A stretch of 64,000 nt of DNA, taken from the NCBI GenBank assembly GCA_024234165.1, contig JACKOP010000001.1, positions 213,707 through 277,706 on the forward strand, in the 5' to 3' direction. Positions 1-29,515 of this stretch are shown here, in pieces; within the stretch, counting starts at the first letter, position 1; each line of letters opens with the position of its first letter. The position numbers and the translations under genes were made by a program. Source of the stretch: Pseudomonadales bacterium (GTDB taxonomy: Bacteria; Pseudomonadota; Gammaproteobacteria; Pseudomonadales; UBA5518). The notes below the pieces were generated by a model that was given only the letters and a program-made list of their open reading frames with translations, was not told where the DNA came from and made no database searches.

Positions 1-776
1 CACACGTACGCAATCGCAGCGTTCATGAGCGGGCTCTGCCCGTAGGCGAGTACCAGCGTTTCACGGATCGACGGTGGCAGCAGTCCGCCCGTGATCTGCG
101 GCTCGGCGAGTTCGGCTGCCGGCACCTCACCGACCACGCGCTGGTAGCGCATGCTGACATCGTGGAGATTGGTCACATCGGTCAGCAGATTCGACTCGGC
201 CAGCGCGAGGCGACCTGCAGCCTGCTCCAGATCGACGCGGCGGCTGACCCCCGCCTTCACACGGCGTTCGATCTGTTCGTAGATCATGCGGTGTGTTGCA
301 TAGTTTTCTTCCGACAGGGAAGCCAGCCCGCGGTGTCGCATCACATCGTAGTAGGCGCGAGCCGCTTCCGCGCTGAGCCGTTCCGACTCGCCCTGGATCT
401 CGTGCCAACGCGTGCGTGCTGCGTGGTTCAGCCGACGGACTTCGTTACGGGTCCGGAAGCCGTCGTAGATCATCTGACTCAGCATCACGCTCACACGGTC
501 ACGCGTGAAATCCCTCTCCAGATACCGCGGATCGTCGATACGCTCCCGTCCCACCCCCGCCTCGAGGTCGACTCGCGGCAGGTAGCCGCCGCTGGCCACA
601 CGCGTCATTTCGTCGGCAGCCAGGTACTCCTGTACGGCAGCGCGTACTTCAGGGTTCGATGTCACGGTCTGGCGCGCAACGCTGCGCAGATCTTCCAGCG
701 TACCCGAGGCCGTAACCGATCCCGCGCCCAGCAACGAGGCGAGCGATACCACAATATGAAGCCTGGTGCGCAACAC
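1..776 (-). CDS. TolC-family type I secretion outer-membrane protein (LapE-like); N-terminal part only, gene runs off the left edge
   Basis: Absent from the ORF track because it is open to the window edge. My minus-strand translation from GTG at 776 (AGGAG about 10 nt upstream) reads VLRTRLHIVVSLASLLGAGSVTASGTLEDLRSVARQTVTSNPEVRAAVQEYLAADEMTRVASGGYLPRVDLEAGVGRERIDD.... That is a signal peptide followed by the typical TolC/OEP N-terminal pattern. It is divergent from lapG-lapD. Confidence 0.8.
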   Translation of the reverse strand, partial: MLRTRLHIVVSLASLLGAGSVTASGTLEDLRSVARQTVTSNPEVRAAVQEYLAADEMTRVASGGYLPRVDLEAGVGRERIDDPRYLERDFTRDRVSVMLSQMIYDGFRTRNEVRRLNHAARTRWHEIQGESERLSAEAARAYYDVMRHRGLASLSEENYATHRMIYEQIERRVKAGVSRRVDLEQAAGRLALAESNLLTDVTNLHDVSMRYQRVVGEVPAAELAEPQITGGLLPPSIRETLVLAYGQSPLMNAAIAYV

Positions 777-985: not shown

Positions 986-1654
986 ATGACGGTCGTGCGT
1001 TTTCTTGCACTATTGATTTTCGTCTGTGCTGGCTGCGTGGCGTTCGCTGTCGGCAACCCCGATTTCGACCGTGCAAGGAATCTTGCACGGGAGCGCTACG
1101 GCGTGGAGGCAGAAGCAAGGATCGCGAGCTGGATCGACTTGATCGCATCATCGGGAATGATGAGCGAGCACGAGAGGCTGTTGGCGGTAAACGCATTCTT
1201 CAACCGTCACGTCGTATTCGCGGATGATTCGGCAATCTGGGGGCAACCCGATTACTGGGCCACGCCGCTCGAGGCGCTCGGTCGTGGAATGGGAGACTGC
1301 GAAGACTACAGCATCGGCAAATACGCCACGCTGGTCCTGATGGGCATACCCGTGGAGCGCATGCGCATCACCTACGTGCGTGCCGAAGCAGGTCTTCCAG
1401 GCAGCGGTATCAGCCAGGCCCATATGGTGCTTGCGTACTACGCTCAGGCAGACGCGCAACCACTGGTTCTGGACAACCTCCTGTCCGAAGTGCGTCCCGC
1501 CTCGCGCCGTCCCGATCTGCATCCCGTCTTCGGTTTCAATAGCGAAGGCTTGTGGCTGGGCAGTGCAGCCATCCCGGCGGCCCGTGACCCGACCGCCAGG
1601 CTGTCGCGCTGGCGGGATGTGCTTCGCCGGATGGCACTGGAAGGCCTACACTGA
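986..1654 (+). CDS. lapG: LapG-type periplasmic transglutaminase-like cysteine protease (BTLCP/DUF920 family)
   Basis: This is the last 222 aa of track ORF 797..1654. I place the start at ATG 986, where MTVVRFLALLIFVCAGCVAFA forms a signal peptide. Cys/His/Asp contexts typical of the family are present (GMGDCEDYSIGKY, SQAHMVLAYY, LVLDNL). It lies directly upstream of a LapD-like gene. Confidence 0.88.
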   Translation: MTVVRFLALLIFVCAGCVAFAVGNPDFDRARNLARERYGVEAEARIASWIDLIASSGMMSEHERLLAVNAFFNRHVVFADDSAIWGQPDYWATPLEALGRGMGDCEDYSIGKYATLVLMGIPVERMRITYVRAEAGLPGSGISQAHMVLAYYAQADAQPLVLDNLLSEVRPASRRPDLHPVFGFNSEGLWLGSAAIPAARDPTARLSRWRDVLRRMALEGLH

Positions 1655-1689: not shown

Positions 1690-3639
1690 ATGTCGCTCAT
1701 CAAGCAACTCTGGCTCGCCATCGTATTGGTCGCCATGGTTGCCTTCAGTGGAAGCCTGCTGGTGAGCAGCCTGTCGGCGCGAGCCTATCTGCAGGAGCAA
1801 CTGCTGCTGAAGAATGTGGATACCGCGGCCTCGCTGGCCTCGACGCTGTCGCAGATGCCGAAGGATGAGGTCACGATCGAGCTGCTTGTGGCCTCCCAGT
1901 TCGACACCGGCCATTACGAGAGCATCCGTCTCGTCGACCCCCGAGGGACGGTCATCGTGGAGCGCCGCAGCGATGTGCACATCGATGGTGCGCCCGGTTG
2001 GTTCATGCGCATGGTTCCGCTGCACGTGACGCCCGGCATCGCCCAGGTGCAGGACGGCTGGAAGCAGTACGGCACTCTGACCCTCAGCAGCCACGCACGC
2101 TTCGCTTACCGTGAATTGTGGACGAGCACGCTGCGTCTGCTGGCCTGGTTCATCGCTGCGGCCGTACTGACCGGTATCGCGGGTACCGTGATCCTGCGCC
2201 TGATCCTGCGTCCACTCGATGGCATCGTGCGGCAGGCAGAAGCCATCGGGGCGCGTCGTTTCATTACGGCAGGAGTGCCGAAAACACCGGAATTTGCTGC
2301 GGTTGTGCGTGCAATGAATGCCCTGGCCAAGCGTGTGCGCCAGATGCTCGAGGACGAGTCGCAACGCCTGGAGCAGTTGCGCCGCGAAGCACACCACGAC
2401 GCCGTGACCGGGTTGCTCAACCGCGGGCATTTCATGGCACGCTTGCTGACGGCATTGGGACGCGAGGACGAGAGTGCGCGCGGAGTACTGGTCATTGCAC
2501 GTCTGCTCGATCTGAACGAACTGAACCGTAACCATGGCTGGCCGGTCGTGGACGCACTGATCCGACGTTTTGCAAGAACTCTGGAGAGCATCGGGCCTGC
2601 CGAAGCTGAATGGATGCCTGGCCGACTCAACGGGTCTGATTTTGCGCTGCTGGCTCCGGGTTGTGACGACGCTGCCGGCCTTGCACGCAGGGTTCAGGAA
2701 GGCATGGCAATGATCGCGCGCGAGTTCGATCTGGCCGATGAGTGCCGTCTGCCGGCAGCAGCCACACTTTACCGTCACGGAGATCAGTTGGGACGGATCC
2801 TGGCACGCGTCGATGCGGCACTCACCATTGCGCTGGAACCGTCAGGAGACAGCGTGCAGGTGGCTGCTCCGGACCAGCGGTTCGACGAGCGGGAGCCTCG
2901 CGACGGGCTCGATGTGTGGAGAGAGCGTTTCATCCATGCACTGAACCCGAACCAGATCAAGTTGCACAGTTATCCCGTCGTCGATGCAGCAGGACGCTTC
3001 CTGCACAACGAATGCGTAGCACGCATGCGCCTCGACAGAACGTCGGACTGGTTGCACGCAGGAGATTTCGTTCCTTGGCTGGCACGTCTCGGAAACCTCC
3101 ATCGCCTCGACGAGATGGTGGTAGACCTCGCGCTGGAACGCCTGCAACACGGTGCCGACGATATCTGCATCAACCTGTCTGCGCAGGCGATGAACAACGC
3201 AGTGCTCGTGCATCGCATCGCGAGCAAGCTGGGCGGTGTTCGCGAAAATGCGGTACGTCTGTGGATCGAAATTCCGGAGCATGGCGTGTTTCAGCACCTG
3301 GAACATTTCCGTGTTCTGTGTGCACTGCTGAAACCGCTGGGATGCCATCTCGGCATCGAACATGTGGGGCATCAGGTATCCCGTATCGGACAACTGCACG
3401 ATCTCGGCATCGACTACATCAAGATCGACGCTGCGTTCGTCAAGGGCATCGACGAAAATCAGGCCAACCAGGTGTTTTTGCGTGGACTGGCGATGATCGC
3501 GCACTCGATAGGTCTGAGTACGCTTGCCGAAGGCGTGGACAGCGCCGCCGAACTGCGCACGCTGGTTGAACTGGGGTTTGATGGTGCCACGGGTCCTGCG
3601 GTGACGCTGATGCTGGACAATGAAGCAGTGTCGGGCTGA
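1690..3639 (+). CDS. lapD: LapD-like inner-membrane c-di-GMP receptor (LapD/MoxY N-terminal periplasmic domain, HAMP, degenerate GGDEF, degenerate EAL)
   Basis: Track ORF of 649 aa. The N-terminus MSLIKQLWLAIVLVAMVAFSGSLLVSSLSARAYLQEQL and a second TM (LRLLAWFIAAAVLTGIAGTVIL) bracket a periplasmic domain. The GGDEF position reads NGSDF. The EAL position reads ECV and DDFGTG reads EHVGHQ, so the protein looks catalytically dead, as expected for a receptor. Confidence 0.88.
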   Translation: MSLIKQLWLAIVLVAMVAFSGSLLVSSLSARAYLQEQLLLKNVDTAASLASTLSQMPKDEVTIELLVASQFDTGHYESIRLVDPRGTVIVERRSDVHIDGAPGWFMRMVPLHVTPGIAQVQDGWKQYGTLTLSSHARFAYRELWTSTLRLLAWFIAAAVLTGIAGTVILRLILRPLDGIVRQAEAIGARRFITAGVPKTPEFAAVVRAMNALAKRVRQMLEDESQRLEQLRREAHHDAVTGLLNRGHFMARLLTALGREDESARGVLVIARLLDLNELNRNHGWPVVDALIRRFARTLESIGPAEAEWMPGRLNGSDFALLAPGCDDAAGLARRVQEGMAMIAREFDLADECRLPAAATLYRHGDQLGRILARVDAALTIALEPSGDSVQVAAPDQRFDEREPRDGLDVWRERFIHALNPNQIKLHSYPVVDAAGRFLHNECVARMRLDRTSDWLHAGDFVPWLARLGNLHRLDEMVVDLALERLQHGADDICINLSAQAMNNAVLVHRIASKLGGVRENAVRLWIEIPEHGVFQHLEHFRVLCALLKPLGCHLGIEHVGHQVSRIGQLHDLGIDYIKIDAAFVKGIDENQANQVFLRGLAMIAHSIGLSTLAEGVDSAAELRTLVELGFDGATGPAVTLMLDNEAVSG

Positions 3640-3645
3640 ACCGGT

Positions 3646-3975
3646 TCAGAGGAGTGTGTGATCCTCTCCAAGCAACCCGAGGTGCGTCCCGCCTCCGCGT
3701 AACTCGCGACGTTCGAACAGCTTGCGCTGCGCAGCCAGTGGCAGATCGGTGAAACGGATCAGATTTTTCTCGATCAGTACGTTCACGAGGTCATCGAGCA
3801 CCCGCACGACCTCGCGGTCGGATTCGGCCAGGCGCGACTGCACGACCCCGGCCCGTTGCCCGAACTCGACGAGATCGGTGGCATCCGCCGTGATCGCTTC
3901 GAACCCCTCGATCGGCTCCATGCTTACGGCCACGATTTCGCCTTCGACATTGCGTCGCACATAACGCATCCGCAC
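3646..3975 (-). CDS. Conserved small hypothetical protein (109 aa), co-oriented and 52 nt downstream of the adhesin gene
   Basis: Track ORF. The motif SDREVVRVLDDLVNVLIEKNLIRFTDLPLAAQRKL resembles a small proteobacterial family of unknown function that I recall only loosely. No catalytic motifs are seen. Confidence 0.55.
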   Translation of the reverse strand: MRMRYVRRNVEGEIVAVSMEPIEGFEAITADATDLVEFGQRAGVVQSRLAESDREVVRVLDDLVNVLIEKNLIRFTDLPLAAQRKLFERRELRGGGTHLGLLGEDHTLL

Positions 3976-4027: not shown

Positions 4028-10903
<6,876 letters not shown>

Positions 10904-11077: not shown

Positions 11078-11692
11078 TCAGGAAGGGCGACGCAAGAGAA
11101 GCGCAAGATGAAGGCGATCCCGCACATCGAGCTTGGCGAAGACTGCTCCAAGATGTGCCTTGACGGTGCGTTCGGTGATCTCCAATTCCCGTGCGATCTC
11201 CTTGTTGCTCGCGCCGTTTGCGACTGCCAGGGCAACCTCACGCTCTCGGATCGACAATCTGGTCAGCAGTTCCGGATCCGGCGCTGCCGGCAACTGTGCC
11301 GCCTGCGAGGCCCTGATCATGCGTCGCAGCAGGCCTTCTCCGACCCACAACCCGCGATTCTCGACGACCGCAGCGACCTGGTGCAGACTCTTTGGTCCTG
11401 CGCAGGAGTGACAATAGCCAACCACGCCGCAATCCATGAGATCCAGAGCCTGCTCGTCGGACGGCACATCAGACAGAACGATCAGGCGAGCGGGGGAGAA
11501 GAGCCCGATCACACCTGCCGGGGTGGCGATGGCTTTCGCAGCCACGGACGGTACGTGCAACCATACGATCACCTGCTCCTCCATCAGGGTCTGTGCTGCG
11601 GCAACGGATCCGGCTACCGTTCCAGCAGGAAAGGCTTCCTTCCAGCGTGCCGATACGATCTGATCTTTGCTGATGAGGATGTGTCGGGTCAT
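11078..11692 (-). CDS. LuxR/GerE-family transcriptional regulator with an atypical (pseudo-)receiver N-terminal domain
   Basis: Track ORF of 204 aa. The C-terminal HTH is LSIREREVALAVANGASNKEIARELEITERTVKAHLGAVFAKLDV. The N-terminus is receiver-like (LIVLSDVPSDEQALDLMDCGVVGYCH), but the expected phospho-acceptor position reads VWLHV with no Asp. Its start overlaps the MFP gene stop by 4 nt. Confidence 0.75.
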   Translation of the reverse strand: MTRHILISKDQIVSARWKEAFPAGTVAGSVAAAQTLMEEQVIVWLHVPSVAAKAIATPAGVIGLFSPARLIVLSDVPSDEQALDLMDCGVVGYCHSCAGPKSLHQVAAVVENRGLWVGEGLLRRMIRASQAAQLPAAPDPELLTRLSIREREVALAVANGASNKEIARELEITERTVKAHLGAVFAKLDVRDRLHLALLLRRPS

Positions 11693-13101
11693 CGTTCTGT
11701 CAACGCATATTGCCGTGCGCGCAGCACCGGCTTCATGAGATAACTCAGGACGCTCTTGCGACCGGTCATGATGTCGACTTCCGCCATCATGCCCGGAATG
11801 ATCGGGAGATCGTCGCCGAGGCTCGGCTTGGTCGTTCTGACTCGCACGAGGTAATACGCGTTGCCGTCTTCATCAGTGATCGTGTCCGCACCGATGCTTT
11901 CTACCGTTGCATCCATGCCCCCATACACGACGAAGTCGTACGCAGTGAACTTGACGCGAGCCTGCTGCCCCGGGCTCAGGAACGCGATGTCGCGCGGTGC
12001 AATGCGCGCCTCGAGCAGCAGCGTGTCGTCGAGCGGCACGATCTCGATGATATCGCGTCCCGGCAGGACGACGCCGCCTTGGGTATTGATCAGCAGGCGC
12101 TTGACGGTACCCCTCACCGGTGAACGAACCTCTGCCTGCTTGACTCGATCGGAAAGCCCCAGACTGCTCTCGACCAGGCTGTTCAGCATGGCGGTAGCAT
12201 CTGCAAGTTCGACCCGACGGGCATTGCGATAATCAAGTTCGACCTGTCCGATCTTGCGCTTGGCTTCATCGATTGCTGCCTGCACACGGGTGATCTGCGC
12301 TGCTGCCTGGTCGCGCTCGCCACGCAAGCGTGATACATCGCGCTTGAGACGCAATATCTCGACCTCCGACACCGCGCCTGATTCAACCAGCGGCTCCGTC
12401 TGCGCCAATTCCTGGTGAGCGAGATCGTGGTTACGTGCAGCCTGCGCATGCAGTGCATTGGTTTCTCGCAGCTCCTGTTCCCTTTGGGCCAGCTGCTGAC
12501 TCGCGATGCCGACCTGTCCCTCGAGTTCGGCCAGACTGGTTTCATATAGCCGCCTCTCCGCAGCCGCGATCTCAGGCGCTTCAGACGCGACTTCTGCCGG
12601 CACCTCGAACGGCTTCCCGTCCGCGATCGCCTGGAGTCGGCGCGTCTTCGCTAGCAGTGACAATCTCTGTGCGCGGTTTTCGCCCAGTGCGGATGCGAAT
12701 CGCGTGGCATCGATCCGGACCAGCAACTGGCCCGCATCCACGATCTGGCCTTCGCGTATGTGAATTTCGGAAACGATGCCCCCGTCCAGCGACTGGATGA
12801 CCTGCACCTGCCGTGAAGGTACGACTTTCGCTACTCCGCGCGTCACCTCATCGATGTGTGCCAGTGCTGACCAGAGAATCAACAGCAGGACGACGAGGGA
12901 GGTCATGTGCAGCAGTGCACGTGCACGCAACGGATCGCGTGCGATACGTGCAGCATGCGCGTCCTCGGCCCAGTCAAGGCGATCTTCACCCGGAACATCG
13001 AACCAGCGTGCAAACACCCGATCGACCCACGGTTTGCCGAACGCGGCCCAGCGATCGGCCAGGGTCTGTCGATGCCCAGCAATCGGGGTCGGCTGGTTCA
13101 T
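11689..13101 (-). CDS. lapC: HlyD-family type I secretion membrane fusion protein (LapC-like)
   Basis: Track ORF of 470 aa. It has an N-terminal TM (MTSLVVLLLILWSALAHI), a long coiled-coil region and a C-terminal beta-barrel region ending in LSYLMKPVLRARQYALTER. Its start overlaps the ABC gene stop by 4 nt. Confidence 0.88.
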   Translation of the reverse strand: MNQPTPIAGHRQTLADRWAAFGKPWVDRVFARWFDVPGEDRLDWAEDAHAARIARDPLRARALLHMTSLVVLLLILWSALAHIDEVTRGVAKVVPSRQVQVIQSLDGGIVSEIHIREGQIVDAGQLLVRIDATRFASALGENRAQRLSLLAKTRRLQAIADGKPFEVPAEVASEAPEIAAAERRLYETSLAELEGQVGIASQQLAQREQELRETNALHAQAARNHDLAHQELAQTEPLVESGAVSEVEILRLKRDVSRLRGERDQAAAQITRVQAAIDEAKRKIGQVELDYRNARRVELADATAMLNSLVESSLGLSDRVKQAEVRSPVRGTVKRLLINTQGGVVLPGRDIIEIVPLDDTLLLEARIAPRDIAFLSPGQQARVKFTAYDFVVYGGMDATVESIGADTITDEDGNAYYLVRVRTTKPSLGDDLPIIPGMMAEVDIMTGRKSVLSYLMKPVLRARQYALTER

Positions 13102-15263
13102 ATGCCTCTCCCGATGCGACCCTGGCGAAGTGCTTCGATTACCGTTGCCTTGGGCCCATCGGCGACGATCTTGCCGTTGTCGATCACGATGATGCGCTCG
13201 ACGATGTCGAGCAACGAGGTCCTGTGCGTCACGACCAGCATCGTGCGATCGCTGCAGAACTCGCGCAGCTTCCTCTTGACCGTGTCTTCGCTCGAATGGT
13301 CCATTGCTGCCGTTGGCTCATCGAGCAGCAGGATGGGTGGCTTGTTGATAACGGCACGCGCGATCGCCACCCCTTCACGCTGGCCGCCGGACAGCGATTC
13401 ACCACGCTCGCCCACCGGCATATCGAACCCCTTGGGGTGCTGATTGACGAATTCCGCGATATTGCCGATGTCCGCCGAGTGCAGGATATCGGTGTCTTCC
13501 GCATGCGGCGTTCCGATCGTGAGATTCTCGCGCAGCGTGCCATAAAACAGCGTCACATCTTGCGGTACATAGCCGATGCTCCGTCGCAGTTCACCGGGTT
13601 CGAGCTGGCGCAGGTCGATCCCGTCGATCAGGACAGCCCCCGAGAGCGGGCGGTACAAGCCGAGGATCAGGCGCAACAGCGTGCTCTTGCCCGAGCCGGT
13701 GCGACCCAGAATCGCAACCTTTTCTCCGGCGCGAATGCGCAGGCTCACACCTCGCAGTGCGTTGACCTCGGTATTCGGGTACGAAAAGCCCACATCTCGA
13801 AACTCGATATCGCCGCGGAAAGACTGGCGGCTCAGGAAGCGGGCGCCGTGTGGTCGCTCCACCGGGTGAGAGACGATCTGGTCGAGCGCCTGCAACGCGG
13901 TCATGGCGTTGTGGTACTGCGTCATCAGGCCTGCAATCTGTCCCATCGGTGCGAGTGCACGCGAACCCAGCATCGAACAAGCTATGAGCCCGCCGAGCGA
14001 GAGTTGGCCCGCACCTATCAGGTAGACCCCGATGACGATTACGCTGATGATCACCAGTTGCTGCGACAGCAACGCGACGTTGATCGTCGACAAGGCCAGC
14101 ATGCGCTGTCGAGCACCCGTGTGGGCGAGAAAGCTCGCACTGCGTTCCCATCGCTTCTGCATGACGCCTTCGGCACCAAGCGTCTTGACCGTTTCAAGCC
14201 CGACCAGGCTCTCCACCAGTGTTGCATTGCGCATCGCACCAGCGCGGAAGGACGACACGGCCAACTCATGGATGCGCGTGCCGACCGTCGCTGCGTATCC
14301 GGTCACGAACAGCATCGCAAGCACTGCCGGTATCAGCATTGGCCAGGCAATCCATCCGATCACGGCCAGGAATATGACCGTGAACGGCAAATCGATCAGC
14401 GCCGTGATGGTCGCCGACGTGATGAAATCGCGCACGGTCTCGAACGAGCGCAGATTCGCGGCCAGCGAACCTACGGAGGCCGGCCGTTCCTCGAGACGCA
14501 TCCCGAGTACGCGTTCCATGATGAATGCCGACAGGGTGAGATCGACCCGCTTGCTCGCGAGATCAAGAAAGAAACCCCGCATCGAGCGCAGGGAAAAATC
14601 ACCCAGCAGTACCAGAGCCACTCCCACAGCCAGGACCCACAGGGTCTCCACGGCGTGATTGGGAACCACACGATCGTAGACATTCATCGTGAACAGCGGC
14701 AAAGCCAGCGCGAAAACATTGACCATGCCGGCTGCCAGCATCACGTCCCGATAGAGCGGCAGGTTTTGCCGCATGGCGCCCCAGAACCAGTGGGGCCCAC
14801 GCTCGATGCCGACCTCGGGGGCACGTTCGTCGAAATTGAAAGCCATGCGCGTCAACAACGCCGAGCCGAGATATCCGTCGGCGAGCACCTGCATGTCGAT
14901 CGAAGCGGGTGCATCTGCACCGCAATGCAGCACCTTGGCGCGTTCACCGTCGCGCGCCAGAAGCACACAAGCCTGCGAGTCACGCAGCAGCAGGATTGCC
15001 GGCAAGGTATCGCCGTCGAGGCGATCCAGCGAAGATTCGACAACCTTTGCTTCGAGTCCAGCCCGCTCTGCTGCGCGCAACGCGAGCGAAGGGGACAGGC
15101 GACCACGTTCCAGCGGCAGCCCCGCGATCAGGCCCTCGCGTGATACCTGCACGCCGCGCTCGCGCGCCACGTACACGAGTGCGTCGAGCAACGGATCACG
15201 AAAGAGTGGCGCATCAGGAGCGTCCGTCTCGCTTGCTGGAACGGAAGCTGAAGAATCGGGCAT
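13098..15263 (-). CDS. lapB: Type I secretion ABC transporter permease/ATPase with N-terminal C39-like domain (LapB-like)
   Basis: Track ORF of 721 aa. Walker A is GRTGSGKST, the signature is LSGGQRE and Walker B is ILLLDEPTAAMD. A six-TM region is present, and the N-terminal roughly 130 aa are peptidase-C39-like with no obvious catalytic Cys context. Confidence 0.9.
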   Translation of the reverse strand: MPDSSASVPASETDAPDAPLFRDPLLDALVYVARERGVQVSREGLIAGLPLERGRLSPSLALRAAERAGLEAKVVESSLDRLDGDTLPAILLLRDSQACVLLARDGERAKVLHCGADAPASIDMQVLADGYLGSALLTRMAFNFDERAPEVGIERGPHWFWGAMRQNLPLYRDVMLAAGMVNVFALALPLFTMNVYDRVVPNHAVETLWVLAVGVALVLLGDFSLRSMRGFFLDLASKRVDLTLSAFIMERVLGMRLEERPASVGSLAANLRSFETVRDFITSATITALIDLPFTVIFLAVIGWIAWPMLIPAVLAMLFVTGYAATVGTRIHELAVSSFRAGAMRNATLVESLVGLETVKTLGAEGVMQKRWERSASFLAHTGARQRMLALSTINVALLSQQLVIISVIVIGVYLIGAGQLSLGGLIACSMLGSRALAPMGQIAGLMTQYHNAMTALQALDQIVSHPVERPHGARFLSRQSFRGDIEFRDVGFSYPNTEVNALRGVSLRIRAGEKVAILGRTGSGKSTLLRLILGLYRPLSGAVLIDGIDLRQLEPGELRRSIGYVPQDVTLFYGTLRENLTIGTPHAEDTDILHSADIGNIAEFVNQHPKGFDMPVGERGESLSGGQREGVAIARAVINKPPILLLDEPTAAMDHSSEDTVKRKLREFCSDRTMLVVTHRTSLLDIVERIIVIDNGKIVADGPKATVIEALRQGRIGRGI

Positions 15264-17676: not shown

Positions 17677-18353
17677 TTGGAGTCGCCGCAACTCAGGCAG
17701 GTCATGCAGCCATCCATCATGATCATTGCCTTGGTCATGCACTTGCTGCAAAGCTGGGCTCCAGCAGGGTAGGGGCTGTGCTCCTGCACGTTCGCCTTTA
17801 CCTTGTTCGTCTCGAACTGAGCCCGCTTCTCATCCATGATTTTCTGTTGATGCTCGCTGATCTCCGGTGGTTGCAGCATCCCGATATCGATCAGATGCGT
17901 TTCGATGCACTCGCCTATCTCGGCGACCAGCGACGGCATGAAACGTCCGCCCTTCTTGAAGTAACCGCCCTTGGGGTCGAACACGGCCTTGAGCTCTTCG
18001 ACCAGGAAGGTGCAGTCGCCGCCTTTGCGAAACACCGCCGACACCACTCGCGTGAGTGCCAGTACCCACTGGAAGTGATCCATGTTCTTCGAGTTGATGA
18101 AGATCTCATACGGGCGTCGCTGCTCGTGTGCAGTGCCCGGGTTCAGCACGATATCGTTGATCGTGATGTACAGGGCGTGCTCTGACAGCGGCGTCTTGAT
18201 CTTGTACGTCGCACCCGGAAGGGTGTCCGGCCTCGAGATGTTCTCGCTCATTCTCTCGATGGCGCGCTCGAGTTCCTCGGCTGTCGAGGCCTTGTCCTGT
18301 GCGGTGTCGAGCACCTTGTAACCGACGATGCGCTTGGCAATCTTGACCGTCAT
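17667..18353 (-). CDS. nrdJb: Class II (B12-dependent) ribonucleotide reductase, small C-terminal subunit NrdJb
   Basis: The real start is ATG 18353 (MTVKIAKRIVGYKV...); the track ORF extension to 18680 overlaps nrdJa out of frame. The Cys-rich tail [27 protein letters not shown], and the position 15 nt after nrdJa, match the split NrdJa/NrdJb arrangement known from Pseudomonas. Confidence 0.8.
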   Translation of the reverse strand: MTVKIAKRIVGYKVLDTAQDKASTAEELERAIERMSENISRPDTLPGATYKIKTPLSEHALYITINDIVLNPGTAHEQRRPYEIFINSKNMDHFQWVLALTRVVSAVFRKGGDCTFLVEELKAVFDPKGGYFKKGGRFMPSLVAEIGECIETHLIDIGMLQPPEISEHQQKIMDEKRAQFETNKVKANVQEHSPYPAGAQLCSKCMTKAMIMMDGCMTCLSCGDSKCG

Positions 18354-18367
18354 GACCGCTGTGCTCC

Positions 18368-20821: not shown

Positions 20822-21652
20822 GTGCCCCGCGCGTCGCGCACCCTGCCGCCGTCCGCGACCATCACCGCAGGACGACACACCGTGGCGCGTCAGATCCGGA
20901 TACTGACCTACAACATCCACAAGGGCTATTGCTCCGGAAACCGCCGTTTCGTGCTCGACGCGATGCGTGCCCGTATCACCGAGACGCGTGCCGATCTCGT
21001 GTTCCTGCAGGAAATCCACGGCAGGCACAGCGGACGGCGAAGCCATGAAGGTCGCTACAGCTACCCGGAACAGCCTCATTTCGAATATCTGGCTGACAGT
21101 TCATGGCCGCATTACGCCTACGGCCGCAACGCGATCTACCGCAGGGGCGATCACGGCAACGCGATCCTGAGCAAATTTCCATTCGTGGGCTGGGAAAACA
21201 TCAACGTCGCCGTGTTTCCACGCTCGAGCCGCAGCATTCTGCACGGAGTGATCGAGATCCCGCGCAGCAGGGTGCGCGTACATACGCTGTGTGTGCACCT
21301 CGGCCTGCTCGAGAAGGAGCGGCGAGGGCAGTTCGAGGTGCTCGCTGCGCGCATCGACTCGCACGTGCCGCGCGACGAGCCCTTGATCATCGCGGGGGAC
21401 TTCAACGACTGGCGGCGCCGCGCCGGACAGCACCTCCACACCGGGCTTGGGGTCGAAGAACTGTTTCTCGAACTGGAGGGGTGCCACGCACGTACATTCC
21501 CGATCTGGCAGCCATTGCTGCCGATGGATCGCATCTACTACCGCGGCGTTGCACCCGTTGCCTGCCAGCGCCTGAGCAGCGGCGCGTGGCGCGATCTGTC
21601 CGACCACGCTGCGCTGATGGGGGTGTTCAACCTGCCTGGGAGACATCGCTGA
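20822..21652 (+). CDS. Endonuclease/exonuclease/phosphatase (EEP) family protein
   Basis: Track ORF of 276 aa. The motifs IRILTYNIHKG, DLVFLQEIH, LIIAGDFND and the C-terminal SDHAAL are EEP hallmarks. The start is either GTG 20822 or GTG 20882. Confidence 0.8.
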   Translation: MPRASRTLPPSATITAGRHTVARQIRILTYNIHKGYCSGNRRFVLDAMRARITETRADLVFLQEIHGRHSGRRSHEGRYSYPEQPHFEYLADSSWPHYAYGRNAIYRRGDHGNAILSKFPFVGWENINVAVFPRSSRSILHGVIEIPRSRVRVHTLCVHLGLLEKERRGQFEVLAARIDSHVPRDEPLIIAGDFNDWRRRAGQHLHTGLGVEELFLELEGCHARTFPIWQPLLPMDRIYYRGVAPVACQRLSSGAWRDLSDHAALMGVFNLPGRHR

Positions 21653-24080
21653 GCCGCTTGCGTGAAGTCAGCTTCAAGGTCGGGATCTGCTGTGACGCGT
21701 AATCCAGGAACGCGTTGACATAATTCATGTTCACCTTGTTGCCGAAGACCACCTGCATGCGCAGCAGGCGGCCGAGCTTGATTGCAGCATGCAGGAACAT
21801 CATCGACGGCAGCAGCCTTCGCTCAGCCTTGCTCAGCGGATGGATTTCCTCCGCAGCTGCGACGAATGCATCACACAGCGTCCTGTCGATGCGCGACTCC
21901 TGATCGACGAATGCGAACTCGAGAGCGGCTTCGGCAACGTCAGCAATGCGGGGGGCGAAATGGGCTGCCTGGAAGTCGTAGAGGATGGCTTGGCCGTCGA
22001 CGAACATCACGTTGCGCGGGGTCACATCGCCGTGACAATGGACCCACGGGATATTCCGGTCTGATTCGATGCGTTCGCGTGCCGCAACGATGCCCGGTTG
22101 CAGCTCGGAAAAACGGGCGTGGAACTCCGGATCATCACTGAACCGAAGCGGCAGCTTCGCACAGTCGGCAAGCCAGAAATCCAGCGATTCAGTGAAGCGA
22201 TACGCCTCGGTAGTGGCAACCTCAGGCAACAGCGCACGGTGTACTTGAGCCAGCATGTGTCCGGCGGCAGCGACGTGCCCCCGTTCCAGACGAGCAGGAT
22301 TCACAGCATGCACGTAGTCGAGCAACATGCAGTGAAACTTGCCGAATGGCTGACACAGCGACCCGTCCAGCGCCCGGCGCGGAATGATCACGGGCGCACC
22401 GGCATGTGCCAGCGCCTCGAGCAGCGCGCATTCGTAACGCAGGTGCGTACCGCGGTGCCCTTCGCTGGGTGGAGTGAACTCCGCCCCCTTCATGACCTTC
22501 ACGATGTATTCGCCGCCGGCAGTGCTTGCTCTGAATACCTCGTTGAAACTCACGCCCTTCAGCGGTGTCAGCGTTTCGATCGAAACCCCGTAGTGCTGCT
22601 CGACGAAGGCGGGCAGGTTGGTGGTGATATCGCTTTTCTCGTACAGCACTTCGCGTGCCGGAAAGCCGCCGAGGTAGCGATCCTTTACCGTCACGTCCAT
22701 GCGGGAAGGAAAGAACAGGTAGGCCTCGACGAGGTGGTGGCGGAACGGAATGTTCGGGAATTGTTCCTGCCACGGATTGTCGATCGGAAAATCGACTTCA
22801 CCGAGGTGATAGTAGTCACAGCCGCATACTTTCCAGAAAAACTTGCGGTCCCACGTTTCGGGAACCGGATAGCGCTCGTCGAGTTCGATCAGGATATCGA
22901 AGTCAGAACCCAGCTTCGCCCACGCAATATGCAGGAATGGTACGTCGTAACGTCCGGTGCGACTGCCGGTCTTCTTCCACTCGATCGGATTCAGCAGGTG
23001 CACCTTCGCTACGCAGGGATACCGACCCACGTGTTCGCGCACGTACTCGCGAAACGCAACATCAAGCCTTTTCAGCTTCTCTTCACCGTAGGGGATCTTC
23101 ATCGGCTTCACGAAACCGATTCCATGTCCGTTCAGGAAGCGGTCGAAGTTCATCCACTCACGATCGAGGTCGATGGGTGCAGGCGCATTGCGTGCCGGGA
23201 ATATCACCCTGTCGCTGGCTGTATCGAACAGCAGTTTCGTGTGCTCGAACTCGAAGCGCTCGCCAAGATTGTTGCATCGCGCGTACTCGTAGAAATCGAA
23301 GACCTGCAGCTTCAGCAGGTTGATCTCGCGGGGGCTGAAGTTGCGTGCGTTGGCACCGAGGTACTCGGCGAGCGGCACCACGGTCGAGGCAACGGTCGCC
23401 CTGGCTGTCGGGAGCGGTGTCGCAGCAATCACCCGCAGCTCGATTCGCGCTCCCGGAATCTCGTAAACATCCCGCTTCGAATCGGGTTTTGTGTAGCCGA
23501 GCCCGGTGAACAACTGCAGAAGCTTGCGGTAGTAGGGCTTTTCTACGCTCACGCGCGCAGAGGCCACATCCCCATCACGCCTGATCTGCTCGACACGATG
23601 CGTCAGCTCGTTGATTTCGATCAAACGAAGTGTCTCGTCGAGGTCGACCGCACGTTCACGCAGATCGAGTACATCACGTGCAGCGCGAGCGAAATTGAGG
23701 AAAGACTCCCTGTCCAGCAGCAGCTTGTAGTTGCGCAGGTGGATGTGAAAACCGTCTGTATTTTCCTCCAGCGAGATGCGTGTGGGGTTGTAGACGATGT
23801 TGCGCCCGAGCGGCTTCTTGTTGAAAAAGGTCTTGATCGTGTCGCTCTGGTTGGTGTTCGGATTCACTCCATCGCGGAACCCGGCGGCGATTTCCTTGCG
23901 GACCTGCGGAATATAGGTCTCGCAGAGGTCAGCGAACTCGAGGAACTCCTCGACGCTGAACTCGATGCGCAGATCCCGGTAATGGACATGGATGTTCTCG
24001 CCCATGTCCATGAAAAAGGTATTGAAACGGTTGTTGCTCAATCCTTCGGAGCGGTGATAGAGGCGAATGATGATTCCCAC
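21627..24080 (-). CDS. Hypothetical 817-aa multidomain protein: unknown duplicated N-terminal module, possible nucleotidyltransferase-like middle segment, C-terminal APH/choline-kinase-like phosphotransferase domain
   Basis: Track ORF with a GTG start at 24080 and GAGAGA 6 nt upstream. The C-terminal region carries the kinase-fold signature WVHCHGDVTPRNVMF...LYDFQ. The N-terminus has two copies of an H-x-H-x-R motif unit (NIHVHYRDLRIEFSVEEFLEF and GFHIHLRNYKLLLDRESFLNF). The middle contains KTGSRTG...LGSDFDILIELDE. Confidence 0.75.
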   Translation of the reverse strand: MGIIIRLYHRSEGLSNNRFNTFFMDMGENIHVHYRDLRIEFSVEEFLEFADLCETYIPQVRKEIAAGFRDGVNPNTNQSDTIKTFFNKKPLGRNIVYNPTRISLEENTDGFHIHLRNYKLLLDRESFLNFARAARDVLDLRERAVDLDETLRLIEINELTHRVEQIRRDGDVASARVSVEKPYYRKLLQLFTGLGYTKPDSKRDVYEIPGARIELRVIAATPLPTARATVASTVVPLAEYLGANARNFSPREINLLKLQVFDFYEYARCNNLGERFEFEHTKLLFDTASDRVIFPARNAPAPIDLDREWMNFDRFLNGHGIGFVKPMKIPYGEEKLKRLDVAFREYVREHVGRYPCVAKVHLLNPIEWKKTGSRTGRYDVPFLHIAWAKLGSDFDILIELDERYPVPETWDRKFFWKVCGCDYYHLGEVDFPIDNPWQEQFPNIPFRHHLVEAYLFFPSRMDVTVKDRYLGGFPAREVLYEKSDITTNLPAFVEQHYGVSIETLTPLKGVSFNEVFRASTAGGEYIVKVMKGAEFTPPSEGHRGTHLRYECALLEALAHAGAPVIIPRRALDGSLCQPFGKFHCMLLDYVHAVNPARLERGHVAAAGHMLAQVHRALLPEVATTEAYRFTESLDFWLADCAKLPLRFSDDPEFHARFSELQPGIVAARERIESDRNIPWVHCHGDVTPRNVMFVDGQAILYDFQAAHFAPRIADVAEAALEFAFVDQESRIDRTLCDAFVAAAEEIHPLSKAERRLLPSMMFLHAAIKLGRLLRMQVVFGNKVNMNYVNAFLDYASQQIPTLKLTSRKRLSDVSQAG

Positions 24081-24188
24081 GGAATGTCTCTCGGATCGTA
24101 TTTGCGGATATCGGATGCACGGGCTGCAGTGCCAACGACAAGCCTAGCAGCTGAGGTGAGGATGCGCTGGCCGTCGACCAGGCGCAGC

Positions 24189-27100
24189 CTAATGAAAATC
24201 CCGCGATACCGTGCGCAGCGTGCCGAGAGCCGCGCTGTGGTCGATCAGCTCGCCGGCAATCACGTGGGCCACGCCGTCCCGGCTTTCCAGCACCCCCTTG
24301 ACCAGCAGCAGCCGCGCACGCAGCAAGGCCGTGCGAAAACGCTCCTGGCGGTCACGCCAGACTATGACATTGATATTGCCGGTCTCGTCCTCCAGGGTCA
24401 GAAACAGCACGCCGCTGGCCGTACCGGGGCGCTGACGCCCGGCGACCAGGCCGGCCACACGCACGAAACGGGCTCCGTCCAGCGCTGCCAGTCCTGCGGC
24501 CGTGCGACAGCGCACGAATGGTTCCCGATCACGCAGCATGGCCAACGGATGGCGGCCCAGCGTAAGGCCCTGGCTGCGATAATCCTGTGCGATTTCCTCT
24601 GCTTCGCAAGGCGCCGCCAACAGCACGCCGTCGTCTGCAACCATCTCTGCGGCACATTCGACGGCATCGAACAGCGGACGGGGTTCCTCGATTGCTGCGG
24701 ATCGCCAGTGCGCCTGGCGACGATGTCCACCCAGACGTTGCAATGCACCGGCACCGGCGAGCAGCGTCAGCTCGTGGCTCTGCAGTTGCGTTCGGTGCGC
24801 GAGATCGTGCAGGTTGTCGAACGCGTGCTCGTGCCGTGCGGCGACGATGCGCACGGCAGTCGCCTGCGCCAGTCCGTCGATTTGCCGCAGACCCAGTCGA
24901 ATCGCAACGGATGAGGAGTGGCTTTCGAGGGTACAGTCCCAGATGCTGCAATCGACATCGATCGGGAGCACGGTGACGCCATGACGGCGTACGTCCTGTA
25001 CCAGCTGGGAAGGCGAGTAGAAGCCCATTGGCTGGCTGTTCAGCAGCGCGCAGCACCAGGCAGCAGGGTAATGACACCTGATCCACGCCGAGGCGTAGGC
25101 GAGGAGGGCGAAGCTCGCCGCGTGCGATTCCGGGAAACCGTATTCGCCAAAACCCTTCATCTGCCTGAACAGCCGCTCGGCAAATTCGCGCTGGTGCCCG
25201 CGCGCAAGCATGCCGTCGATCACCTTGCGCTCGAATGTGGCCAGCGCACCGTTGCGCTGCCAGGCCGCCATGGCGCGACGCAACTGATCGGCTTCACCAC
25301 CCGAAAAACCCGCCGCGACCATCGCCAGCTTGATCACCTGCTCCTGGAAGATCGGCACGCCGAGCGTGCGCTCGAGCACTTCGCGAACGGCCTCGTCGGG
25401 GTAGCTGACGGGTTCCAGCCCCCGGCGTCGTCGCAGGTAGGGATGCACCATATCGCCCTGGATGGGCCCAGGACGCACGATCGCGACCTCGATCACCAGA
25501 TCGTAGAAAGTGCGTGGTCTGAGGCGTGGCAGCATCGCCATCTGCGCACGCGACTCGATCTGGAACACGCCCACGGTATCGGCGCGTCTGATCATCGCGT
25601 AGGTTGCGGGGTCCTCGTGCGGGATCGACTGCATGTCGAGTTCGACGCCATGCGCGGCGCTGATCAGTGCGAAACTGCGACGCAGTGCGCTCAGTATCCC
25701 GAGCGCGAGGATATCCACCTTCAGCAGCCCCAGCGCTTCGATGTCATCCTTGTCCCACTGGATCACGGTGCGTCCTGGCATCGCGGCGTTTTCCACCGGC
25801 ACCAGTGCGGCCAGCAGGCCACGCGCGATGATGAAGCCACCGACATGCTGCGACAGATGGCGCGGAAAGCCGAGGATCTGGTTCACCAGCGACAGCAACT
25901 TCTCTGCAATTGCAGTCGCAGCGTCCAGATTCTCTTCGGTGAAACGACGGGCGAGTTCCTCGCGACAGTCCCACCATGACAGCGATTTCGCCAGCCGATC
26001 GACGAACAGCGGGTCCAGCCCCAGCGCCCTGCCGACGTCACGCACCGCGCTGCGCGGGCGATAGCGGATCAGCGTTGCCGCCAGTGCCGCACGCTCGCGC
26101 GAGTATTTGCGGTAGATGTACTGAATGACTTCCTCGCGCCGTTCGTGTTCGAAATCGACATCGATATCGGGTGGTTCGTTGCGCTCACGTGAAATGAAGC
26201 GTTCGAACAGCACCGCAATGCGGTCGGGGTCCACTTCCGTGATGAACAGGCAATAACAGACCGCCGAATTGGCAGCTGAACCACGCCCCTGACAGAGGAT
26301 GCCGTTGCTGCGCGCAAACTGCACGATGTCGTGTACGGTCAGGAAATAGTGCTCGTAGCCGAGTTCGGCGATCAGGACGAGCTCCTTGTCCAGCAGCGCG
26401 CGCACCCGTTGCGGTACTCCGGCGGGCCAGCGTCGTTGCGCGCCGGCATCCACCAGTTGCGCCAGCCAGCCCGTAGCCGTGATACCAGGCGGCACCACCT
26501 CGGCCGGGTATTCGTAACGCAGTTCGCTCAGCGAAAAACTGCAGCGACTGGCAATGAGCAATGTTTCAGCGAGCAGCGCAGGCGGATAGATGCGACGCAA
26601 TCGTGCCAGCGGCCGCAGATGACGTTCCGCATTGGGCTCAAGTCGCGTGCCGAGCTGCTGCACCGGCTCTCCAAGCCGGATTGCACACAGCGTATCGGCC
26701 AGAGCCTTGCGTTCAGCCACATGCATCAACACGCCACCGCAGGCGACCATCCGCAGCGCCAGGCGCCGTGCAATGCCGCACAGTCGCTGGTAATGCGCCT
26801 GGTCATCGGCACCGAGCAGCAACTCGACTCCCAGCCAGAGCCGGTCTGTGAATACGTTGCGCAATGCCTCGCCACAGGCCGCGAGCCCGTCTTCGGCACC
26901 ACTACCCGGAAGCCAGATCGCGAGACAGCAATGGATCACCTGTTCGATATCGTGCAAGCCCAGCGTGTACTCACCCTTCGGACTGCGACGGCGCGCCAGC
27001 GTGATCAGGCCGGACAGCTCGGCATACGCCGCGCGATCCGGCGCAAGCAACACCAGCAGACAATCGGAATCCAGCCGGAACTCGGCACCGACGATCAGGT

Positions 27101-27278
27101 GCAGGCCATGCATACGTGCTGCCACATGCGCCTTGACGACGCCTGCCAGCGAACATTCGTCGGTCAGTGCCAGCGCGCGATAACCTTCGTGTGCGGCCTG
27201 TGCCACCAGCTCGGCCGGGTGCGAAGCACCACGCAGAAAACTGAAATTGCTGAGACAGTGCAACTCGGCGTAGCCCAT
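24189..27278 (-). CDS. dnaE2: Error-prone DNA polymerase DnaE2 (ImuC)
   Basis: The track ORF runs to 27287 with a TTG start. I prefer ATG 27278 with GAGG 4 nt upstream (MGYAELHCLSNFSFLRGASHPAELV...). The PHP and pol III alpha core motifs, the roughly 1030-aa length and a LexA box upstream all fit DnaE2. Confidence 0.92.
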   Translation of the reverse strand: MGYAELHCLSNFSFLRGASHPAELVAQAAHEGYRALALTDECSLAGVVKAHVAARMHGLHLIVGAEFRLDSDCLLVLLAPDRAAYAELSGLITLARRRSPKGEYTLGLHDIEQVIHCCLAIWLPGSGAEDGLAACGEALRNVFTDRLWLGVELLLGADDQAHYQRLCGIARRLALRMVACGGVLMHVAERKALADTLCAIRLGEPVQQLGTRLEPNAERHLRPLARLRRIYPPALLAETLLIASRCSFSLSELRYEYPAEVVPPGITATGWLAQLVDAGAQRRWPAGVPQRVRALLDKELVLIAELGYEHYFLTVHDIVQFARSNGILCQGRGSAANSAVCYCLFITEVDPDRIAVLFERFISRERNEPPDIDVDFEHERREEVIQYIYRKYSRERAALAATLIRYRPRSAVRDVGRALGLDPLFVDRLAKSLSWWDCREELARRFTEENLDAATAIAEKLLSLVNQILGFPRHLSQHVGGFIIARGLLAALVPVENAAMPGRTVIQWDKDDIEALGLLKVDILALGILSALRRSFALISAAHGVELDMQSIPHEDPATYAMIRRADTVGVFQIESRAQMAMLPRLRPRTFYDLVIEVAIVRPGPIQGDMVHPYLRRRRGLEPVSYPDEAVREVLERTLGVPIFQEQVIKLAMVAAGFSGGEADQLRRAMAAWQRNGALATFERKVIDGMLARGHQREFAERLFRQMKGFGEYGFPESHAASFALLAYASAWIRCHYPAAWCCALLNSQPMGFYSPSQLVQDVRRHGVTVLPIDVDCSIWDCTLESHSSSVAIRLGLRQIDGLAQATAVRIVAARHEHAFDNLHDLAHRTQLQSHELTLLAGAGALQRLGGHRRQAHWRSAAIEEPRPLFDAVECAAEMVADDGVLLAAPCEAEEIAQDYRSQGLTLGRHPLAMLRDREPFVRCRTAAGLAALDGARFVRVAGLVAGRQRPGTASGVLFLTLEDETGNINVIVWRDRQERFRTALLRARLLLVKGVLESRDGVAHVIAGELIDHSAALGTLRTVSRDFH

Positions 27279-27293
27279 AAGCCTCAACCCATG

Positions 27294-27313
27294 TACTGTT
27301 TGTTTGTACAGTA
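27294..27313. promoter_or_regulatory. LexA (SOS) box overlapping a candidate -10 element of dnaE2
   Basis: TACTGTTTGTTTGTACAGTA fits CTGT-N8-ACAG with the TACTG...CAGTA flanks of the gammaproteobacterial consensus. On the minus strand, TATACT (27310-27315) overlaps the box. It lies between divergent dnaE2 and ycgN. Confidence 0.85.
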
Positions 27314-27377
27314 TACAGGCTCTGCAGGGTTTGCCCGGTTAACATGCACCACACTGCCCACAACCGGCACTGCCGCA

Positions 27378-27827
27378 ATGAACCGATCCACTGCACCGTT
27401 CTGGAAGACCACTCCGCTGGAGCGCATGAGCCGTGCGCAATGGGAATCCGTGTGCGATGGCTGCGGCCTGTGCTGCCTGCAGAAACTCGAGGACGAGCAC
27501 ACCGAACGCATCTACTACACGAACGTGGCCTGCCGTTTGCTCGATCCCCAAACCTGTCGTTGCAGCGACTACGCTCACCGCCGCCTGCGTGTCTCGGACT
27601 GCATCGAGCTGACACCACAGACGATCAGCGATTACCGCTGGCTTCCAGAAACCTGCAGCTACCGTCTGCTGGCCGAAGGAAAGGAGCTGCCGGACTGGCA
27701 CCATCTGGTGTGCAACGACCGCGATGCGGTACATCGCGCAGGGATATCGTACGCCGGACGCATGATCAGCGAAGACGAGGTGCACGAGGAAGACTGGGAG
27801 GATCACATCATCTTCCGCATCGGCTGA
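27378..27827 (+). CDS. ycgN: YcgN-family (UPF0260) cysteine-cluster protein
   Basis: This is the last 149 aa of track ORF 26331..27827, starting at ATG 27378. The sequence reads MNRSTAPFWKTTPLERMSRAQWESVCDGCGLCCLQKLEDE...YTNVACRLLDPQTCRCSDY. Confidence 0.85.
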   Translation: MNRSTAPFWKTTPLERMSRAQWESVCDGCGLCCLQKLEDEHTERIYYTNVACRLLDPQTCRCSDYAHRRLRVSDCIELTPQTISDYRWLPETCSYRLLAEGKELPDWHHLVCNDRDAVHRAGISYAGRMISEDEVHEEDWEDHIIFRIG

Positions 27828-27905
27828 TGCTGTCTTGCCTCCCAATTCCGCTGGACCCGCTTGACCCGGTTTTGTGAGAGACCGAACCGGGCCGTGTTTG
27901 GCCGG

Positions 27906-28199: not shown

Positions 28200-28232
28200 A
28201 GAATCCGAACAGCAACTTCCAGGAGCCCTGCC

Positions 28233-28457: not shown

Positions 28458-28491
28458 GCATCACCCCACGGTCAAGGAAAAAATGAGACGG

Positions 28492-29224: not shown

Positions 29225-29515
<291 letters not shown>

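Follow-up and report, generated by a model that had tools for sequence, protein, structure and literature searches.

Protein X, a kinase-containing multidomain protein and candidate accessory enzyme of LapA-type adhesin secretion systems

The stretch of 64,000 nucleotides analyzed here (hereafter, the window) comes from a Pseudomonadales bacterium (GCA_024234165.1, contig JACKOP010000001.1, positions 213,707-277,706) and encodes on its minus strand, at 21627..24080, an 817-residue multidomain protein that we name X and whose gene follows that of the error-prone polymerase DnaE2. The reading that we favor, tentatively and with slightly less than even confidence, is that X serves the type I secretion systems (T1SS) of LapA-type adhesins as a cytoplasmic accessory enzyme with several activities, has the adhesin as its putative substrate and is not a component of the SOS response. 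The main reason for proposing this function is the convergence, beside a kinase-containing enzyme, on hydroxyl-rich, proline-spaced tracts. The GTG start codon assigned to X is credible, since homologues share the resulting N-terminus, MGII(T/I)RL.HRS, with at least 90% conservation. The protein has no hydrophobic segment (the maximum Kyte-Doolittle score of any 19-mer is 1.2) and is predicted to be soluble and cytoplasmic.

Gene neighborhood of X and its candidate substrate

The initial annotation had labeled X an orphan, which turned out to be wrong, as we found 110 homologues, most of them full length and reaching down to 27% identity. Among species-representative genomes, the presence of relatives was confirmed at 100 places, of which 80 loci were kept for a census of the features lying within 10 kb of X, together with a subset of 41 loci that retain at least 5 kb of upstream sequence. 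Besides Pseudomonadales metagenome-assembled genomes (MAGs), the lineage of the window, the hosts of the family comprise Rhodospirillales/Magnetospirillum, Magnetococcales, Gallionellaceae, Sulfuricellaceae, Rhodocyclaceae, Methylobacter, Desulfobulbales, Desulfonatronum and others. Cultivable carriers include Thiohalocapsa marina DSM 19078 (L040), Candidatus Methylobacter oryzae KRF1 and Rhodospirillaceae bacterium LM-1.

A gene for a T1SS ATP-binding cassette (ABC) transporter or membrane-fusion protein was found in 29 of the 80 loci, lapD or lapG in 12, a GerE regulator gene in 17 and a threonine-rich open reading frame (ORF) likewise in 17. Any T1SS, Lap, GerE or Thr-rich feature is present in 45/80 loci and in 28 of the 41 with sufficient upstream sequence. 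The association comes in at least four gene orders: sm109 / ABC-AprE-GerE-X, with OEP-LapG-LapD upstream; OEP-LapG-LapD-X, in which only 4 nucleotides separate LapD from X (four loci); a tandem-ABC (ABC2)-AprE-adhesin-X order followed by a signal-peptide reprolysin-like protease; and an adhesin gene divergent from X. These arrangements span the Desulfobacterota and the Alpha-, Beta- and Gammaproteobacteria, and X hence shows the recurrent adjacency to T1SS, Lap and adhesin genes, across lineages and gene orders, by which a component of Lap-type loci can be recognized. By a rough estimate, chance would account for a few per cent of such adjacency, far less than was observed. Many contigs end 0.3-2 kb upstream of X, in or beside a repeat gene, and further T1SS or adhesin cases are probably hidden, presumably because assemblies break at repeats.

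The T1SS substrates encoded beside X are rich in threonine and are built from unrelated repeat units (TTA/TTP, TTTP, NPTTPV, SPT, HTSTVP and TSATTA), the Gallionella substrate combining about 100 copies of TTAPVST with RTX repeats. In the window, the candidate substrate is a LapA-type adhesin of 2291 residues (4028..10903, minus strand), the extender of which is an unbroken 1557-residue (TT[A/P/V/T])n tract, threonine accounting for 1096 residues, or 48%, of the whole protein. The retention module of the adhesin is of the LapA type (NF033682, 114 bits, cut-off 50) and has the di-alanine LapG site PAAG at residues 112-115, and the C-terminus scores as a T1SS target domain (TIGR03661, 46 bits, cut-off 17.6); Pfam gave no match in the protein.

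This adhesin gene belongs to a full Lap-like cassette located about 6 kb from X. At the edge of the window, a match to a TolC-like outer-membrane factor (9..734, minus strand) covers roughly half of the query and comes within 9 bases of where the window begins, so that the gene may run off it. A LapG-like periplasmic cysteine protease follows on the plus strand (~1085..1633, a tblastn match with approximate ends), as does a LapD-like receptor for cyclic di-GMP (1696..3594, plus strand). The remaining genes lie on the minus strand and encode, in addition to the adhesin, the conserved small protein sm109 of about 107 residues (3646..3969), a GerE/LuxR regulator (11078..11692) of the kind found immediately upstream of X in other genomes, a T1SS membrane-fusion protein of the HlyD/AprE type (11689..13101) and an LssB-type T1SS ABC transporter (13098..15263), which scores 938 bits on TIGR03375, the cut-off of which is 693. 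Cassettes of this kind from Desulfobulbales and other lineages likewise contain both sm109 (107 residues) and the GerE regulator. The N-terminal C39-like domain of the ABC transporter lacks the catalytic cysteine, which is replaced by alanine in the window. The idea of a peptide-cleaving bacteriocin exporter, by which X would become an enzyme for ribosomally synthesized and post-translationally modified peptides, was considered and set aside on these grounds, and on account of the LapA-type nature of the substrate.

Between the cassette and X lie a transaldolase gene, an AstE-like gene, a ribonucleotide reductase (RNR) gene and an EEP gene. In class II RNR, the C-terminal part of the protein is normally formed by a TSCPD domain. 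In the window (17667-20527, minus strand), the large chain of 719 residues is followed by a separate TSCPD-domain ORF; the two overlap when taken as longest ORFs and lie 14 nucleotides apart in gene calls on the identical contig, a split arrangement.

Several other genes recur near X outside the window. A signal-peptide reprolysin-like zinc protease of about 275 residues (HELGHLMGLNHG; Pfam Reprolysin_5) directly follows X in Gallionellaceae, Methylobacter, Magnetococcales and others (L076:3714-4547, L046:12448-13329, L042:4089-4940 and some 25 more loci), and has no homologue in the window; it may be a mucinase-like protease or a release protease for the Thr-rich adhesin. A protein of 607 residues, 50-67% identical across lineages and with no match in Pfam or the PDB, is encoded near X or the adhesin in seven loci (L007:12484-14307, L035, L059, L066, L083, L087 and L088). 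In Desulfocapsaceae-type loci (L009, L025 and L032), X is followed by genes for an LPG_synthase_C-like (DUF2156) protein, a lamin-tail-domain protein and a Mur-ligase/PGA_cap fusion, and kin of the DUF2156 gene and of the fusion gene occur in a few other loci (L026 and L074 are listed).

Domain composition of X

The ORF and every motif quoted in the initial annotation are present in X, namely KTGSRTG (residues 370-376), LGSDFDILIELDE (390-402), HCHGDVTPRNVMF (681-693) and DFQ (702-704), and the division that it proposed, into a duplicated N-terminal module of novel type, a possible nucleotidyltransferase (NTase) segment and an APH-like kinase, was borne out. Its statement that no characterized protein has such an architecture also stands, none having been found in profile, structure or literature searches.

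The best-defined part is the C-terminal kinase of the APH fold (residues 491-817; 21630..22610, minus strand). Pfam APH (PF01636) matches residues 505-734 with an E-value of 1.5e-17 (64.6 bits against a cut-off of 23.2), and HCHGDVTPRNVMF and DFQ, on which an APH-type signature in the last 300 or so residues had been proposed, fall inside this match. The catalytic signature is complete, with the beta3 lysine K528, the alphaC glutamate E550, the H683-G684-D685-x4-N690 loop and the metal-binding aspartate D702 of DFx. K528, E550, H683, D685, N690 and D702 are invariant in 70 out of 70 full-length homologues, and G684 is kept in 68 of them. Judging from these residues, the kinase is almost certainly active. 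In profile searches, its closest solved relatives are the type II homoserine kinase 2ppq, the amicoumacin kinase AmiN (6sum), YihE/RdoA (1zyl) and the spore-coat protein YtaA/CotI (2q83). Public annotations call it "phosphotransferase" or "homoserine kinase", and the latter label is unsupported, as X reaches no curated functional subfamily cut-off among NCBIfam-type models. For homoserine kinase (NF003558 and TIGR00938) it scores 59.1 bits against 271 and 29.3 against 255.9, both being equivalog cut-offs; the corresponding values are 25 against 194 for the YihE type, 20 against 173 for CotS and 11.6 against 680 for APH(9)-Ia. No family of PADLOC anti-phage defense models was matched by X at E <= 1.

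Upstream of the kinase, residues 355-490 (22611..23018, minus strand) probably adopt the fold of a minimal pol-beta-type NTase, as judged from motifs and from the predicted structure. An AlphaFold2 model of the N-terminal 495 residues, built on an alignment of 80 sequences, reached a predicted local distance difference test score (pLDDT) of 88.8 and resolves four parts: the tandem module (1-145), a small alpha/beta domain and a helical domain (together, 147-350) and a strand-rich domain (355-490). The last of these bears an invariant S392-D393-x-D395 on a predicted strand, D393 and D395 being present in all 80 family members, and, at position 452, an acidic residue (E452 in X), with E or D in all 20 rows that were inspected. 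X thereby has the [DE]x[DE] on the second strand and the third carboxylate that characterize the pol-beta superfamily, and lacks the hG[GS] element, at the position of which it reads L-L-N-P (N364-P365); this site holds G in 59 of the 80 family members and N in the 21 that form the clade of X. The proposal that KTGSRTG and the downstream aspartates resemble a pol-beta GS...DxD motif therefore stands for the DxD and falls for the GS, a dipeptide that lies 8 residues past the canonical site, inside a 4-residue clade-specific insertion.

Foldseek against the PDB ranked ANT(2'')-Ia, LnuA, a Sulfolobus NTase, CCA-adding enzyme, TUT7 and CdnC at the top for this domain, none of them significantly (E 0.07-0.5). 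No sequence-profile link of residues 355-490 to known NTases emerged from the Pfam, PDB profile and homologue searches, the homologue search with the NTase-region profile returning two family fragments only, and PDB sequence searches with the whole of X, with the middle region and with the NTase-region profile gave no match outside the kinase. Residues 147-350 (23031..23642, minus strand) are predicted with confidence, the pLDDT being mostly above 90, and gave no match to any family or structure.

The N-terminal module (residues 1-145; 23646..24080, minus strand) is a tandem of beta-beta-beta-alpha units carrying HxH motifs. The initial annotation had noticed two copies of an unfamiliar motif unit in the first 150 or so residues. 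These units, NIHVHYRDLRIEFSVEEFLEF (residues 29-49; 23934..23996, minus strand) and GFHIHLRNYKLLLDRESFLNF (residues 110-130; 23691..23753, minus strand), represent a true duplication, given that BLASTP matches one half of the module to the other (E 8e-05) and that AlphaFold2 predicts the order strand-strand-strand-helix in both halves (pLDDT 89.9, predicted TM-score 0.79). E28, N29, H31, H33, E45, H112 and H114 are invariant even when standalone relatives are included, and R35, D36, R38, E40, D109, G110, R116, Y118 and K119 within the X family only; the pattern of invariant histidines suggests a four-histidine site. A model of the 145-residue module found no match by Foldseek in the PDB (best E 1.6) or among the BFVD viral structures (best E 0.14).

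Among 1.84 billion representative proteins, 152 contain this module. It also occurs by itself, in proteins of 125-140 residues, and fused to ParB/Srx-like and methyltransferase domains. The standalone proteins are homologous to the N-terminus of X (E down to 7e-11, library-wide) and score 24.6-25.8 bits against DUF6686 (PF20391), the gathering score of which is 23.9. At E <= 0.1, 27 of 42 module fragments match DUF6686 and 14 match HicB-like_2, the fragment of X itself having no match at that level. By way of these sequences, the module of X appears to be distantly related to DUF6686. Two standalone proteins of about 135 residues were located (L090:10001-10405 and L092:5989-6399), and proteins P0148, P0135, P0138 and P0151 are module-bearing as well, standalone and fused forms taken together. 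The setting of one standalone protein is a glycosyltransferase/methyltransferase cluster, and that of another is a T4-like phage, close to the gp32 and portal genes.

Variants of the family divide or extend the architecture. In one, the N-terminal 480 residues form a protein of their own, with a separate APH gene adjoining; in another, from a Desulfobulbaceae MAG (P0058, L005:10001-13375), X continues at its C-terminus into a radical SAM/SPASM enzyme of a protein-modifying type. A related radical SAM/SPASM enzyme is encoded by the gene that follows X in Desulfonatronum (L038:8788-9711), and this link hints at a further protein-modification step.

Function of X: the favored reading and its alternatives

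If X modifies the adhesin, its kinase would transfer phosphate from ATP onto hydroxyls of the Thr-rich extender, or onto those of sugars borne by the extender, and the NTase-like domain might add a nucleotide or a phospho-group. Modification would take place in the cytoplasm, on the unfolded adhesin, ahead of its export through the ABC/membrane-fusion protein/TolC channel. The N-terminal module would act as the docking or recognition part, since it is also found alone and fused to other modifying enzymes. In the genome analyzed here, a rearrangement would have moved X behind dnaE2, leaving about 6 kb between it and the cassette.

A number of observations weigh against this reading. The link between X and the adhesin is drawn entirely from gene neighborhood, and 13 of the 41 loci with good flanks, mostly from Magnetococcales, have no T1SS or Thr-rich gene within 10 kb, just as Desulfobulbales-type cassettes hold X and yet show no Thr-rich gene in that range. 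The solved kin of the kinase are small-molecule kinases (homoserine, amicoumacin) as much as protein kinases (YihE, YtaA). The NTase assignment stems from motifs and from weak Foldseek matches (best E 0.07), has no profile support and concerns a clade that has lost the canonical GS. Finally, we know of no precedent for a heavily phosphorylated substrate crossing a T1SS channel.

A bolder form of the same proposal, to which we assign a rather low probability, is that X represents a new class of T1SS maturation enzyme that loads phosphate, and perhaps nucleotide or phospho-sugar, onto the poly-Thr extender before export, turning it into a rigid polyanionic brush, with the HxH module of unseen fold serving either for docking or as a third catalytic element. 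The hosts of the family are chiefly iron-oxidising, sulfur-cycling, methanotrophic and magnetotactic bacteria, and such a brush, if it exists, could matter for attachment to mineral surfaces or for their handling.

Among the alternatives, the one that survives best, albeit as an unlikely one, is that X senses a signal through its N-terminal and NTase-like domains and phosphorylates the GerE-type regulator or LapD, controlling adhesin expression or release. The adjacency of GerE and X in 17/80 loci, the position of X right behind LapD in four loci and the kinship of its kinase with YihE/RdoA-type protein kinases are all in line with this possibility. So is the receiver-like N-terminus of the GerE regulator, in which, by eye, the usual acidic phospho-acceptors are absent, His occupies the place of the acceptor Asp and the conserved Lys is missing, so that the regulator would need a non-canonical input. 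However, Gallionellaceae-type loci pair X with an adhesin and a T1SS and have no GerE gene, an invariant DxD and a large, conserved, enzyme-like N-terminal module would be superfluous in a simple regulator kinase, and the radical SAM/SPASM fusion better suits a modification pathway.

Somewhat less probable still is a scheme in which the kinase phosphorylates a small alcohol or sugar and the NTase-fold domain either nucleotidylates the product or transfers the phospho-group to the adhesin or to a glycan. Such a scheme would have parallels in the decoration with phosphocholine by LicA/LicC/LicD and in the action of POMK and fukutin/FKRP on the mucin-like domain of alpha-dystroglycan. The small-molecule enzymes among the closest solved kinases (homoserine kinase 2ppq, amicoumacin kinase 6sum and choline kinases) and the small-molecule nucleotidyltransferases ANT(2'')-Ia and LnuA, as best fold matches of the middle domain, agree with it, as do the cytoplasmic N-acetylglucosamine (GlcNAc) transferase that Magnetospirillum sp. 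WYHS-4 encodes two genes downstream of X and the standalone module protein inside a glycosyltransferase/methyltransferase cluster. On the other hand, glycosyltransferases are not recurrent beside X (the GlcNAc-transferase and TPR genes of locus L003 have no relatives in the other 80 loci), and LicD and FKRP structures are not among the top 50 fold matches.

The Pfam APH match, the ranking of ANT(2'')-Ia and LnuA as best available fold matches and the public labels "phosphotransferase" and "homoserine kinase" could also be taken to indicate a stand-alone bifunctional enzyme, APH- and ANT-like, that detoxifies or modifies metabolites and lies close to adhesin genes by coincidence. We regard this as improbable, for the adjacency to T1SS, Lap and adhesin genes survives at least four gene orders and several phyla and classes, and no resistance-family model is reached by X, whether APH(9)-Ia or homoserine kinase (59 bits against 271).

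The initial annotation had instead tied X to the SOS response, as a damage-inducible enzyme that is co-transcribed with dnaE2 from a LexA-controlled promoter and acts on nucleotides or on small molecules related to DNA damage. Its description of dnaE2 as SOS-controlled is reasonable, as the product of the gene (24189..27287, minus strand) is a genuine error-prone polymerase by its NF004225 score (1432 bits, cut-off 939) and a perfect CTGT-N8-ACAG SOS box, TACTGTACAAACAAACAGTA, lies at 27296..27311, a few bases upstream of its start. This gamma-type box is the real one, no relevant site having been found for the alphaproteobacterial LexA box GTTC-N7-GTTC. The imuA and imuB genes, expected near dnaE2, are not present upstream. 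The dnaE2 gene stands alone behind its SOS box, and the 3.3 kb upstream (27300-30600) have no long ORF; among the short ones are a phage-integrase SAM-like fragment and a thioredoxin-like ORF, and the region may be a mobile-element remnant or a decayed region.

X lies on the same strand as dnaE2, and the gap of 108 nucleotides from the dnaE2 stop to the X start (24081..24188, minus strand) was confirmed. It contains no SOS box, no consensus promoter and no T-tract terminator; the promoter TTGGCA-N17-GATATC that had been suggested there did not pass a consensus scan and is not conserved in relatives of 86% identity. The blocks CTGCTAGGCTTG and CGAGAGACAT of the gap are conserved in close relatives, and a short hairpin follows the dnaE2 stop, the RNA of the gap folding no better than shuffled controls. 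Since the gap has no convincing terminator, read-through from the LexA-controlled dnaE2 promoter into X is possible in this genome; even if real, it would reflect no more than a gene order that arose by accident in this lineage.

Within 10 kb of X, dnaE2 occurs in only 3 of the 80 loci. Two of these (L010 and L053), in which the dnaE2-X arrangement is kept, belong to close relatives with an X 86-97% identical to that of the window, and in the third dnaE2 is located downstream, on the opposite strand. This scarcity is the outcome that the initial annotation had itself named as speaking against a damage-inducible enzyme tied to dnaE2. With secretion and adhesin genes as the conserved partners of X and no nucleic-acid-related domain detected in it by Pfam, subfamily or defense-model searches, the SOS hypothesis fails as the function of the family, and we consider it highly improbable.

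At its 3' end, X overlaps the convergent gene of a YbhP-like EEP protein (20822..21652, plus strand) by 26 nucleotides, as had been noted before and as an independent gene call on the identical public contig also gives. This gene has no conserved link to X, and a role of its product as partner phosphatase of X was discarded, the conserved neighbors of EEP genes being RNR or a ClsB-like phospholipase D gene (L088:13306-14073, and the locus ends of L058 and L089). Because EEP pairs elsewhere with these genes, its overlap with X in the window is an accident of gene order.

Comparison with known systems

The kinase of X is a member of a known superfamily. In the family libraries, solved structures and papers that were searched, no match was found for the architecture as a whole, for the N-terminal fold or for the association with Lap-type T1SS and poly-Thr adhesins; literature searches on Thr-rich T1SS adhesins, on kinases or NTases in T1SS loci, on Gallionella stalks and on DUF6686 returned nothing that describes the X family. 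With the APH/choline-kinase-fold enzymes (PF01636), the C-terminal 327 residues of X share both the profile match and the catalytic set (beta3 Lys, alphaC Glu, HGDxxxxN and the Asp of DFx), and compared with homoserine kinase, AmiN, YihE and YtaA, X alone carries a 490-residue N-terminal extension. The present results also correct public annotations such as "homoserine kinase".

With the minimal pol-beta nucleotidyltransferases (ANT(2'')-Ia, LnuA and MNT-type enzymes), X shares a predicted strand-helix-strand-strand core, the SDxD on a strand and E452. The hG[GS] element is kept in the 59 family members mentioned above and replaced by N-P in the clade of X, and about 25 residues separate GS from DxD in the X family. 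ANT(2'')-Ia, LnuA and their like are the top-ranked fold matches for the domain, yet with E-values of 0.07-0.2 and no profile link. DUF6686 (PF20391), in turn, is an uncharacterized Pfam family to which the module of X is akin through its standalone homologues, the fragment of X itself having no match, and no paper mentioning it was found in a literature search. X may hence offer a first functional handle on DUF6686-type modules, which are also found in phages and in glycan loci.

Lap-type systems are a main model for the switch between attached and free-living states in Gram-negative bacteria. With the Lap system of Pseudomonas fluorescens (LapA, LapBCE, LapD and LapG), the window shares the retention module and its di-alanine site, the T1SS signal, the LapG- and LapD-like genes and the LssB-type ABC transporter. 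It differs in the extender of the adhesin, which is a low-complexity Thr tract of 1557 residues and not a series of Ig-like repeats, and in the addition of the GerE regulator, the 107-residue protein and X. To our knowledge, none of these three is part of any described Lap system, and literature searches found no GerE, 107-residue or X-like component, and no kinase or nucleotidyltransferase component, described for Lap-type systems.

Taken together, X and extenders of about 1,000 threonines point to a post-translational modification step for T1SS substrates, for which the precedents that we know of are limited to acylation (HlyC) and sulfation (RaxST). HlyC acylates HlyA in the cytoplasm before its export by a T1SS. 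The tyrosine sulfotransferase RaxST is encoded beside the RaxABC T1SS, and modification of the substrate likewise takes place in the cytoplasm before export (PMC4216712). The folds and chemistry of these two enzymes are entirely different from those of X, the putative role of which derives from its gene neighborhood alone, but both follow the logic that we propose for X, that of an enzyme encoded with a T1SS and acting on its substrate prior to export.

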